64,000 bases of DNA from Octopus vulgaris (Eukaryota), in assembly GCA_951406725.2 (NCBI GenBank), contig OX597827.1, positions 59,582,001-59,646,000 on the forward strand. The letters are read 5' to 3'. The notes under the pieces were generated by a model. It saw nothing but the letters and a program-made list of their open reading frames with translations. It made no database searches and was not told the origin of the DNA. The translations under genes and the position numbers were made by a program. Every line of letters begins with the position of its first letter. Within the stretch, counting starts at the first letter, position 1. This document shows positions 17,834-58,724 of this stretch, one piece after another.

Positions 17834-18150
17834 GCTCGGTGGTTAGAGCGTCGAGCTTACTATCGTGAGGGTGTGAGTTTGAATCCCGGACCGGGCTGCG
17901 TGTTGTGTTCTTGAGCAAGACACTTTATTTCACGTTTATTATACTCAGCTGTAGAAATGAATTGCGACGTCACAGGTGCCAAGCTGTATCAGCCTTTGCT
18001 TTTCCCTTGGATAACACTGGTGGCGTGGAGAGGGCGACTACTCGTATGTATGGGCGACTGTTGGTCTTCCATAAACAACCTTGCCCGGACTTGTGCCTGG
18101 GAGGGTAACTTTCTAGGTGCAATCCCATGGTCATGACCGAAGGGGGTGTC
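17834..18150 (+). mobile_element. SINE family D (tRNA head plus CORE-like domain)
   Basis: GCTCGGTGGTTAGAGC and GAGTTTGAATCCC boxes. GTGTTCTTGAGCAAGACACTTTA..CTCAGCTGTAGAAATG resembles the CORE domain. Confidence 0.85.
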
Positions 18151-18298
18151 AGCATATATATATATATATAATATATATATGCTGGTGCTATCTCTTCATT
18201 ATCAATTAGTAATTATTTATCTTCATGTTTTTTTACGCATGCTAAACCACTGACAGTGTTGTAAACAATATCCTAATATTATATATATATATATGAAA

Positions 18299-18918
18299 TG
18301 TAAGCAGCAGTTTGCAATGTTTCGCCAAATAGGTGAATTATAAGTGTCACTAAATGTGACTATGGTGTTAAAAAGAGCATCTAACAGGAACCATAATTGT
18401 CCGAAAAATACCGATCGCGAATTCTTGCGACTGACGCGTCAGTTTCGACAATTTCCGTTGCTATCATCAGTTAAACCAGTTCGGTGTTCGGCTATTTCCG
18501 GACCTGTTTCTGCATAAGCATATATGTTTTTGTCGTCCAAATTAACGGATGATTTAACGATTGGCTAATGTATATACACAAAATTAATGTAAATAGCAGG
18601 CTGGAATGTTTCATCAAAAAGGAGAATTATAATTGTCACTAAATGTTATTAGGGTGTTAAAAACCCCCACCTACATTGCTAGAAGTAAGAGCTAAAATCC
18701 TGTAATATTACAGTTAATGCACATGAAGGAAAACATACGTTAACAGGAACCATAATTATCCGAAAAATACCGATCGAGAATTATTAATACTGGCGCAATT
18801 ACGGTCCTTGTTAGTGTATATGCTTTCATTCATGTTCTTAAACTACAGCTTTAGAGAACTTTAGCTCTTATTTCTATCAATATAGGTGTTTTTTAACACC
18901 CTAGTCACATTTAGTGAC
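18299..18918 (-). mobile_element. Family F: tandem plus inverted HHR-bearing repeat
   Basis: GTCACTAAATG at 18346 and 18635 (period 289; copy 1 lacks about 70 bp). 18795-18918 is an inverted copy of 18635-18760. Confidence 0.85.
18425..18475 (-). ncRNA. Hammerhead ribozyme-like motif with a 12-nt palindromic stem III
   Basis: Minus strand reads TTTAA CTGATGA TAGCAA-CGGAAA-TTGTC GAAA CTGACGCGTCAG TC. The stem I 3' strand is decayed here but reads TTAA in copy 2. Confidence 0.65.
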
Positions 18919-18933
18919 TATATATATATGCTT

Positions 18934-19269
18934 AGACCCTCTTCGGTCATGACTGACCATGGGATTGCACCTAGGAAATTACCCTCCCAGGCACAAGTCC
19001 GAGCAAGGTCGTTTATGGAAGACCAGCAGTCGCCCATGCATACAGGGTCTCTCCTCTCCACGCCACCAGTGTTATCCAAGGGAAAGGCAAAGTCTGTACC
19101 AGCTTGGCACCTGTGATGTCGCAACTCATTTCTACAGCTGAGTGAACTGGAGCAACGTGAAATATAGTGTCTTGCTCAAGAAAACAACACGCAGTCCGGT
19201 CTGGGATTCGAACTCACAACCTCACAATCGTAAGCTCGACGCTCTAACCACCGAGCCATGCGCCTTCAC
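18934..19269 (-). mobile_element. SINE family D, full length
   Basis: Minus strand has A-box TGGCTCGGTGG, B-box GAGTTCGAATCCC and the CORE-like domain. Inverted relative to 17834-18150. Confidence 0.9.
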
Positions 19270-23837: not shown

Positions 23838-23976
23838 GTATAAATAATAAGGCTGGCTTGTGGCTTGTTAGCAAATTTTCAACCGAAAGGCAAAAATATA
23901 TACGACAGTAAAGCGACTGAGCTAGCTATTCAGCACCAGTATTTCTAGAAATAAGAATTAAAACAAAGAATTAGCA

Positions 23977-44578: not shown

Positions 44579-45151
44579 ATTCTCAACCATTCTTTTTTTT
44601 TTAACTTATGGACCCCTTCAATTTCTATCTTATTTTATAATGGAAGGAAGGTTTTCTGTCTCTGACAACATGTGAGGCGTCGGAACATAGCGGTAGACGG
44701 GAACGATGTCTGTAGGCTTCACCAGGGAAAATGGCGAAAACGAAACGGCGGGAAACAATCTCGTCCTTACAAGTTTACCGGTTCGTTCCTAGCAGCTTTC
44801 GTCACTTCTCAACATGGCGTCGTTTGTTTAATTCGTCTAAGGAGCGTGGTACCTCGGTGGGGGGGGGGCGCGATCAGGGGACGAATTTGCGGTTCTTCTC
44901 TTCTGTTCATTCGTGTGTATAAGTTTGTACAGCTTTTCTATTTTGAGGTAGAGCGAACACATGCACATAGAAAGCTCATTCTTTTAGGAATCATAACGAT
45001 GGCGAAACTTTCGTATTCAAACTCGGGCTGCGAAGTTGATGGCCGGCTTGCTTGAAAATATGTCCTCTCGTTGCTGCATTTAGAAACTAAGTTCTTCGTT
45101 CGGGTGAGCCATTTTAACCACGATAGAAGCTTGATGTTTAAAAAATCCTAA

Positions 45152-45197
45152 GACTCCTGATGATGGTTGGAGGGTATATCAACCGAAACGTTGTGTT
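45152..45197 (+). ncRNA. Minimal hammerhead-like motif
   Basis: GACTC CTGATGA T GGTTG-(10 nt)-CAACC GAAA CG TT GTGTT. Stem I has one mismatch, AACGTT palindrome, GTT triplet. Confidence 0.55.
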
Positions 45198-45665
45198 AAC
45201 AACAAACAAGATGAGGACAAATATCCGTCAATTGTAAATAATGTAAATAATGTAAATAATTCCTCATCTCTTAAATATAGATCTACATCTTGGATCACGA
45301 TATCGAACGTTTCTTTCATTTCTCAGAAGACAGTTTTGTACTATGACTAAGATTTGGCTGGTATTTCCAGCGAGAGCGAGCAACTGCATGATGACTCCTT
45401 ATGATGTTGATGATGGTGATAGTGATTGTGAAGTGATAGTCATTAATCATTACTCATTAATCATTATTTATGTCGTTCTTTAGTTGCATGAAAGTCATGA
45501 CTGAATAGAACAATGACACAAAGACGTTACGACCATGGACATCCCGCATTTTGTAAATCAGTCACTATATTTACATAATCTAATGACTTTTTCCTGCCAT
45601 TCATATTTTAAGATACTAAAAGTGTAATTTGAAGGTAATTTGGCTATTATTTTTAGCCTTTCGGA

Positions 45666-56976: not shown

Positions 56977-57600
56977 GATAGATAGACAGATACCCAGGCA
57001 GACAGGCAGATAGATAGATAGATAGATAGATGTGAGATACCTATCCATGTGGGACCGGAAATCACGTGTCATGTTTAATTAGAGAGAAAGGCAGAGAGAG
57101 AAAGAGAAAGAATGGAAGAAAAAGGAAAAGAGAAGTAGGCGGTGAGGACCAAAATTGATGAGATACTTGTCTGTTTCTTTGTTTTTTACATCCCCGACTC
57201 TTGTCGTGTCCCCTAATGAAACTGTGTCCTTTAAAATCATAGTCCTTTCAAAATTTTCTCGTTGTTTATACTTTTCATTTTCTATGAAGTCTGTTTCTTT
57301 GCTTCACGTCTCAGTCGGGAGTTCAAACTCAGCAGAGAAAAAAGGTCGTTTGACATACATACATACATACATACATACATACATACATACATACATACAT
57401 ACATACATACGTACATACATACATACATACATACATACATACATACATACATACATACATACATACATACATACATACATACATACATACATACATACAT
57501 ACATACATACATACATACATGCATACATACATACATACATACATACGTACATACATACATACATACATACATACATACATACATACATACATACATACAT

Positions 57601-57935
57601 AACAAGCCTACCAAAAGCACTACTAGCCATGCTGATTCTGTATGAAATTTCATCATCAAAACCAGCAGTGCTCAAGGTACTTCCTAAATAAATGAATCTA
57701 GGTACTGTCTACAAACCTTTGACCATTCACAGTTATAAAAAGTTCTACATACATCCTGGAGGGATCGGGCTGGTAGATTATAACAGTTTTCTTTAGATTG
57801 TCAGACCCAATACTGTTCATGCTGCAAAAATTGTATTCACCATGTGCTGCATACCTTTCTGAGATTGTGCCAACAGGTCACCATCATCTGCATACAGAAA
57901 CTCAACAAGGTGAGAATGCAGAACTTTCGTAAAGG
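57601..57935 (-). pseudogene. RTE-like LINE reverse transcriptase fragment
   Basis: EFLYADDGDLLAQSQKGMQHMVN...GLTI...FIYLGSTLSTAGFDDEISYRISMASSAFGRL, with frameshifts. Ends at a (TATG)n tract. Confidence 0.85.
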
Positions 57936-58724
57936 TAACAGTACATACATACAAACATACATGCATACATACATACATACATACATATCCAATCCAACAA
58001 TGGAATTGTAAAATCTGTAAAACTTTCCAGAAGTTTATCATGTCTAGATATGCAAATATATGCATGTGAAGACATGCATAAAACAAAACATACCAATCTG
58101 CACATATACATACGTACATGCATGCAAAAAATACCCTGTTGCTGATGTTGAAATTCCAATGAAGGATCCTTGGATCTAGGTTAGAAACCGGTTCTTTCCC
58201 CATTGGCAAGAAATCTTGAAATAAAACTAAATAATGACATACATACATATACACATGCATGCATGAATAAGTACATACATGCGTACATACAACACACACA
58301 CGCGCACACATACACGCACACATGCACGCACATACACACACGTATAGTATATTTGTGATGGGCTTACCGCAGCTTCTGTCTTACTGATGTAATATACGAA
58401 ATACGTATTGACGAATTAGTTTTAGAAACATCGGACAGAATACCTGTGTGTGTATGTATGTATGTGTGTATGTATGTATGTATGTATGTATGTATGTATG
58501 TATGTATGTATGAATGTGTGTGTGTATGTATGCTTGTATGTATATGTGTGTGTGTAGTGTGCATGTATATATATATATATATGCGTGTGTGTGTGTGTAT
58601 GTATATATGTATGCACTATATATATATATATATGTGTGTATGTATGTAGGTAGGTATGTATGTATGTGTGAGTGTAGTATATATGTACATATGTGTGTGT
58701 GTATGTATATATGCGTGTAGTATG

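Follow-up and report, generated by a model that had tools for sequence, protein, structure and literature searches.

The question raised by this locus is what kind of element combines a tandem repeat, a hammerhead motif and an inverted copy of the same sequence, and how the three came to lie together. We analyzed the window, that is, the whole 64,000-nt stretch of Octopus vulgaris DNA, which is AT-rich and microsatellite-rich eukaryotic DNA, and delimited the element as a 622-bp stretch (18297-18918), in which 1.6 head-to-tail copies of a 359-bp unit span 18297-18796. The features of the element and its surroundings are as follows, with the strand given where one applies.

17834..18133, plus strand: SINE-like repeat of about 300 bp, flanking context outside the element
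18280..18294: left (TA)n tract, at the 3' (RNA-sense) end, the likely target
18297..18345, minus strand: 49-nt tail, present on the sense arm and missing from the inverted arm, which begins at unit position 50
18297..18585, minus strand: copy 1, the full unit minus a 70-bp deletion near 18375-18381
18424..18476, minus strand: type I hammerhead motif of the PLE type, with C3 at 18470, an extra U after A9 and C17 at 18429; decayed here
18430..18443: helix III, a perfect 14-nt palindrome, predicted at -2.8 kcal/mol as a monomer and -25.1 kcal/mol as a dimer
18585..18586: head-to-tail junction, common to other loci
18586..18796, minus strand: copy 2, a 5'-truncated unit (positions 1-211) that stops at the palindrome centre
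18758..18796: unpaired 39-nt hairpin loop, bounded by the inversion junction 18796/18797, which has at most 1 nt of microhomology
18797..18918, plus strand: copy 3, an inverted, 5'-truncated arm without tail (unit positions 172 to 50)
18919..18929: right (TA)n tract, which doubles as the tail of the adjoining SINE-like repeat
18954..19256, minus strand: second, inverted copy of the SINE-like repeat, 88.5% alike, outside the element

The unit was defined by self-comparison of the window, which gave one direct repeat at an offset of 289 (18297-18374 versus 18586-18663, 83.3%, E 6e-18) and another at an offset of 359 (18382-18437 versus 18741-18796, 87.5%, E 4e-14). Copies 1 and 2 are identical in 121 of 141 aligned letters, and 70 gap columns fall in copy 1. 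Since other copies of the family span these 70 bp (joints 18369>18668 and 18745>18392), we conclude that the gap is a deletion in copy 1 and that the unit is 359 bp long. This agrees with a preliminary description of the locus, which had given a period of 289, or about 360 if a 70-bp deletion in copy 1 was allowed for. The GC content of the unit is 35.1%, copies 1 and 3 agree in 49 of 54 letters, and the order in the RNA sense is inverted truncated arm, truncated unit, full unit and tail.

The last letter of copy 2 (18796, unit position 211) is no more than 1 nt away from the centre of the palindrome, and the inverted arm begins at unit position 172. Because the arms end at these two positions, the hairpin is asymmetric, with a 39-nt loop, and one of its two breakpoints lies in the palindrome. 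The earlier statement that copy 2 runs into the palindrome and then inverts was correct, but the hairpin with arms of about 125 bp has to be redrawn: the arms measure 122 nt, are 79.3% alike (96/121) and are not symmetric. The outer 49 nt of the unit are missing from the inverted arm. The predicted folding of the whole element (z = -9.1) is attributed to the long inverted arms. No flanking DNA is duplicated at the element, and no TSD can be resolved in TA tracts of 15 and 11 nt, which form both flanks. The SINE-like repeat has just two copies in the 64 kb, one on each side of the element, with tails inward and each ending in (TA)n; read-through RNA across them would form a long duplex. We call this repeat SINE-like on account of a B-box-like motif seen by eye, and no tRNA was found in it by ARAGORN.

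A hammerhead on the minus strand had been proposed for this locus, and it was indeed recovered, with C3 and C17 at the positions listed above. Two matches to the hammerhead core pattern were counted in the window where 0.04 would be expected, and none of 100 shuffles reached two. Helix III of the hammerhead is the palindrome noted before, with a length of 14 nt (18430-18443) instead of the 12 nt originally reported; as a monomer, this helix consists of 5 bp plus a tetraloop. In the window copy, both core-proximal pairs of helix I are mismatched (A-G and A-C), and helix II starts with A-C at its base, followed by G-U, after the extra U. The element has one complete core, the second being cut at helix III, so that copy 2 has no core, although the GUA triplet (18790-18788) is still there and so is the 3' strand of helix I. 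None of the 5 Rfam matches of the element belongs to a hammerhead family, and no such family appears among the best 150 of the 389 matches of the window, nearly all of which are microsatellite-driven miRNA models. Free folding of the window hammerhead predicted no hammerhead fold (z about 0.5), and the predicted folding of the monomer was no better than that of shuffles (z -0.11).

The two would-be cleavage sites lie exactly 359 nt apart. The copy 1 core (18430-18475) could pair with the half palindrome of copy 2 (18784-18796) in 7 of 8 pairs, and together with the helix I strand of copy 2 it has 4 possible pairs around the GUA triplet, which would close the 359-nt interval. The activity of this pairing is doubtful, helix II being weak, and the present-day locus probably cannot release a monomer or a circle. 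A second, unrelated minimal hammerhead of the PLE type lies at 45150-45200 on the plus strand (C3 at 45157, extra U, 6-bp helix II, 4 of 5 pairs in helix I); it occurs once in the window, and no tandem or inverted partner lies close to it.

To place the unit among its relatives, we used contigs of three DNA runs, X1, X2 and X3, which come from one study and represent at most 2 samples; 0.23 of the sampled words were present in one run, and the two further runs are from the same study. No RNA run was listed among those containing the sequence, from which we drew no conclusion. At 80% likeness, 1510 contigs matched in X1, 163 in X2 and 168 in X3. The X1 contigs comprised 25 that were at least 99% alike, 245 at 95-99%, 499 at 90-95% and 741 below 90%; with 25 of 1510 in the top class, the source organism of the runs may differ from the species of the window. 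The unit belongs to a multi-copy family. We did not take summed depth as copy number, and two pattern scans of metagenome contigs returned 0 loci. The ribozyme bins in X1 had a depth about 10-30 times lower than 18675-18699 and 18850-18899, where depth was far higher in X2 and X3 as well, so that a segment of 25-40 nt is common to a much more abundant repeat; weaker resemblances to this segment occur at two places, 23946-23962 and 45639-45655. The left flank of the element (18225-18296) is itself repeated, being found in 13 X1 contigs and followed there by TA-rich sequence, and common letters at 18254 and 18256 in these contigs complete a small hairpin as read by eye.

The family letters bear directly on the decayed helices. 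At the broken pairs, common letters differing from the window copy account for 87% of X1 depth at 18427 (29 contigs), 95% at 18428 (31 contigs), 88% at 18448 (39 contigs) and 85% at 18462 (18 contigs), and all four are present in X2 and X3 too. With these letters, which are per-column majorities and may not lie on one molecule, helix I has 4-5 bp and helix II becomes a 5-bp helix closed by G10.1-C11.1, where G10.1 exists in the common letters and the window copy differs. Stem I pairing in the family had been named beforehand as one of the points on which the reading would turn, and it was found, helix II being re-paired as well. At 18475, the common letter (45%) turns a U-G pair into C-G. The palindrome had no variant among the 40 of 222 rows of the other-letter table that were shown, and no two-sided compensatory change was seen in the helices. 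A CCAAT box at 18561-18565 was considered and rejected, as the common letter at 18563 disrupts it.

Of the rows shown, 38 fall within the element and 26 of these are comparable with another copy in the window: 23 departures are private to one copy, 1 is shared and 2 involve a third letter. Among the 26, no departure common to copies 2 and 3 only was seen. Because 23 of the 26 are private, the three pieces appear to have decayed separately from a near-common sequence, which fits one old insertion. The alternative view that the 79-86% identity among the copies reflects separate templates was rejected, since the departures are mostly private.

The head-to-tail junction is bridged, with at least 31 letters on each side, by 6 of the 24 listed records (of 2004), which are 14-19% divergent, and 2 of the 6 extend from the ribozyme across the junction. 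As the junction recurs in this way, we regard the 359-bp tandem unit as a property of the family. Neither the inversion junction nor the left end is spanned by any of these 24 listed records (of 2004), a result to which we gave no weight. Contigs on the inverted arm usually continue into the tail (52 X1 records behind 18918), and therefore the absence of the tail is a feature of the right end of this element. The longest listed piece of the family is 244 nt, and TA-rich sequence adjoins before 18581 in 2 X2 contigs.

The element itself is non-coding, with stops in all three sense frames of each copy. Neither RT nor GIY-YIG was found by Pfam in 150 of the 308 ORFs of the window (higher-complexity ORFs of at least 55 aa), of which 5 proteins gave weak matches below the cut-off. 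The frame from the ribozyme ATG, an arrangement as in the anole element, was used as a 36-residue query with one stop as X and matched none of 1.84 billion proteins, a search of low power. An autonomous PLE partner was accordingly not found with the window ORFs or with this short query. Frames at 57307-58380 on the minus strand, interrupted by microsatellites, contain what we take to be LINE-like RT words, including YADD; they had no Pfam match.

To see where other copies invert, we expressed in unit coordinates the 21 distinct joints, of at least 77, that were shown in two tables (15 of 77 in one and 12 of 23 in the other). Twelve of the 21 are colinear or deletions and were rejected as orientation rearrangements, and 9 are inversions (189/108, 330/59, 25/130, 55/93, 104/124, 122/111, 236/156, 47/110 and 111/128). 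The palindrome, at unit positions 204-217, is touched by none of these 9 inversion joints among the 21 shown of at least 77. In three of the 9, unknown letters separate the two parts, and one of these three stops at a distance of 15 nt from the palindrome. Ends at unit positions 108-111 are seen in four of the 9; the much more abundant segment has its edge there, and these ends may be alignment edges. One joint, 18462>18813 (236 plus 14 letters), places an inversion about 6 nt upstream of a hammerhead core whose position 7 differs.

If a hotspot took half of all inversions, a result like this would have a chance of 0.002 with 9 joints and of 0.016 with the 6 resolved ones; for a palindrome share of 25%, the chance of 0 hits is 0.075 and 0.18, respectively. 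For a single locus, the chance of a breakpoint in the palindrome is 7.6%, and that of a breakpoint at its centre ± 1 nt is 1.7%, both calculated post hoc. The joint sample is small and biased, in that copies with the junction of the window locus are invisible as joints and perfect hairpins may interrupt contigs; it leans against a dominant palindrome hotspot and is compatible with a share of 25% or less. A template switch targeted to the ribozyme, as suggested in the preliminary description, is thus not supported, since none of the 9 other inversion joints lies in the palindrome and the single hit has a 7.6% chance. The junctions visible in related copies lie outside the hammerhead motif, which makes this locus largely ordinary.

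We compared the element with known systems as they are presented in the available parts of the cited papers. PLE insertions are described there as having a partial tandem, an inverted 5'-truncated copy, a one-sided 30-40 bp tail and a (TA)n bias (PMC8557442, PMC8969392), and palindromes at their inverted junctions have been interpreted as self-priming (PMC3846280). In vitro, both strands of AT-rich DNA are nicked and extended by a PLE protein, which uses uncut RNA and has two RT start sites that bound the tail (PMC11167929). Our element has the same partial tandem and head-to-head inverted 5'-truncated copy as EN+ PLE insertions of the Penelope/Poseidon and Neptune type (PMC3846280, PMC8557442, PMC11167929), together with the tail at one end, the AT/(TA)n target, the palindrome at the inverted junction and the hammerhead in the terminal repeat. 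It differs from them in having no RT-GIY-YIG ORF, in that its entire unit measures 359 bp, and in its tail of 49 instead of 30-40 nt, the left edge of which merges with the TA tract.

The hammerhead, too, resembles those of PLEs, for which an extra nucleotide between 9 and 10.1, a short helix I, a palindromic helix III and G10.1-C11.1 are described as marks (PMC4209133). According to the accessible text of that paper, the type I order, the extra nucleotide at 9/10.1, a helix I of 4-5 bp and the palindromic helix III are shared with our motif; G10.1-C11.1 matches in the common letters and is absent from the window copy. The helix III palindrome of 14 nt contrasts with the absent or small helix III of the metazoan PLE variants, and helix II has 5 bp here as against 6-8. 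The same paper reports hammerheads on opposite strands, 100-700 bp apart, and proposes circles as tandem templates (PMC4209133).

Retrozymes are presented as tandem units of 150-450 bp with type I hammerheads, proposed to use PLEs (PMC7229834); a 2026 preprint derives them from pLTRs and holds that activity needs two complete units (10.64898/2026.07.22.740005). In common with animal non-LTR retrozymes, as far as these two sources are available, the element has a non-coding, head-to-tail 359-bp unit with less than 50% GC and a type I hammerhead, both kinds of repeat are multi-copy and heterogeneous, mussel repeats measure 350-390 bp, and a derivation from pLTRs with mobilization by PLEs is proposed. 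The canonical retrozyme hammerhead (6-bp helix I, 4-bp helix II, loop-loop contacts) differs from ours, in which these helices have 4-5 bp and 5 bp, but mussel retrozymes themselves are said in the accessible text to lack most of the loop contact nucleotides (PMC7229834). Moreover, the window locus has one complete, mispaired core where two complete units are called for, and it carries an inverted arm and a tail, whereas the word 'inverted' is absent from the available text of PMC7229834. The non-autonomous Chlamys elements such as MRC1 are likewise non-coding PLE derivatives with pLTRs and head-to-tail insertions; they are green-algal, however, and in the accessible sections their clade is described as having no canonical hammerheads (PMC8557442). 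A literature search, with subscription titles mostly outside its coverage, returned nothing on the 359-bp family or on a junction palindrome that is identical with helix III. The choice posed at the outset between a retrozyme and an ordinary pLTR was therefore too narrow: the tandem non-coding unit was confirmed, but it is combined with a PLE-type ribozyme and the hallmarks of PLE insertion. By its sequence, the element seems to work like a retrozyme-type non-autonomous PLE, and is neither an active retrozyme by the two-unit criterion nor an autonomous PLE.

Taken as a whole, we think that the 622-bp stretch is probably an old, decayed copy of a non-coding 359-bp family, likely inserted by the reverse transcriptase-endonuclease of an autonomous PLE. 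We are considerably more confident about the identity of the element, which would be the same if the inversion had arisen by fold-back, than about the course of its insertion. The data establish the layout, the family, the shared tandem junction, the helix pairing at the level of the family and the private decay of each copy. Because helices I and II are paired with the common letters and the junction recurs at other loci, we read the unit as one that would behave as a non-autonomous, retrozyme-like PLE derivative.

During such an insertion, the PLE protein would nick both strands of the (TA)n tract. At one nick, cDNA synthesis would be primed from unit position 1, the outer start site, including the tail, and would proceed over 570 nt (359 + 211), beyond both would-be cleavage sites and 8 nt past the second. 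A cut linear monomer could not be the sole template of the sense arm, since the arm crosses both of these sites; a circle and an uncut multimer would serve equally and are indistinguishable here, which fits the circular or multimeric RNA template envisaged in the preliminary description. The other nick would prime at the inner start site, position 50, without the tail, and about 122 nt would be copied. A head-to-head joining of the two truncated ends would follow, with microhomology of no more than 1 nt. The stop of the long arm in the palindrome is likely to be due to chance or to a mild pause at a stable helix, and not to a turning point used throughout the family. A point against this explanation is the position of the junction, no more than 1 nt from the palindrome centre, for which fold-back accounts more directly.

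According to the fold-back model, which is nearest to the idea originally put forward and shares the family and the PLE machinery with the explanation we prefer, a cDNA or antisense template paired with itself at the helix III palindrome and primed the inverted arm, and about 38 nt were later lost on one side. Self-priming has been proposed for palindromes at inverted PLE junctions (PMC3846280, in its available part), the 14-nt palindrome can form a hairpin, and the private decay of the copies permits arms that were identical at birth. We nevertheless regard this course as rather unlikely, since a further deletion, on one side and with its end exactly at the centre, would be required, none of the 9 visible inversion joints (0/6 with known letters) touches the palindrome, and no departure is common to copies 2 and 3 only. 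It also seems quite improbable that the locus is an ordinary truncated remnant of an autonomous PLE, the pieces being pLTR fragments of a full-length transcript with no independent 359-nt element. The hammerhead is indeed of the PLE type and not canonical, and most PLE hammerheads are described as solo motifs from truncated elements (PMC4209133, accessible text), but random truncation would vary the junction from locus to locus, and the recurrence of the tail-to-upstream junction in 6 of the 24 listed records, 14-19% divergent and in 2 cases continuous with the ribozyme, counts against this view. Furthermore, no coding remnant was found in the copies, in 150 of the 308 window ORFs or with the 36-residue query.

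An origin purely at the DNA level, in which one old monomer was duplicated and inverted by slippage, unequal crossover or replication fold-back, without RNA being involved in either the tandem or the hairpin, would suit the AT- and microsatellite-rich surroundings and the inverted SINE-like copies flanking the site, and unequal crossover has been proposed for local pLTR amplification in the available part of the 2026 preprint (10.64898/2026.07.22.740005). However, no flanking DNA is duplicated, the inverted arm runs from a tail boundary to a TA tract, and other loci show the same tandem junction and other inversions, all of which makes this origin very improbable. Hardly credible is a working retrozyme at the present locus that cleaves itself twice and yields a 359-nt circle. 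The exact 359-nt spacing of the would-be cleavage sites and the potential of the copy 1 core to pair with the half palindrome (7/8) and helix I strand (4 pairs) of copy 2 around the GUA triplet speak for it; against it stand the single complete core, a helix I that is unpaired beside the core, a helix II that starts with A-C and G-U, predicted folds without a hammerhead, a monomer z of -0.11 relative to shuffles, and the failure of 8 of 9 predicted Xenopus dimers to cleave, as reported in the accessible text of the preprint (10.64898/2026.07.22.740005).

Insertion of a decayed, non-autonomous family copy by a PLE enzyme, the reading we prefer, adds one family to the case for animal retrozyme-like repeats as non-autonomous Penelope derivatives. 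The type of evidence here is the insertion architecture, i.e. a tail and an inverted arm on an ORF-less tandem unit; the 2026 preprint, in the part available, used co-occurrence and phylogeny. A more far-reaching proposal is that the unusually long (14-nt) palindromic helix III has two uses in a 359-nt circle-forming family, one in the ribozyme, as its dimer helix, and one during reverse transcription, as a place at which the PLE enzyme stalls or folds back. We consider this unlikely; if it were true, the palindrome described for some time at inverted PLE junctions would be helix III, and the insertion of retrozyme circles by PLEs would be demonstrated at the sequence level. Should intact copies make circles and breakpoints cluster in helix III, a scenario that is beyond the present evidence on both counts, the unit would offer a small substrate for studying the role of the PLE hammerhead and the origin of the inverted arm. 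The points of interest of this family are its long palindromic helix III and its shared ORF-less unit.
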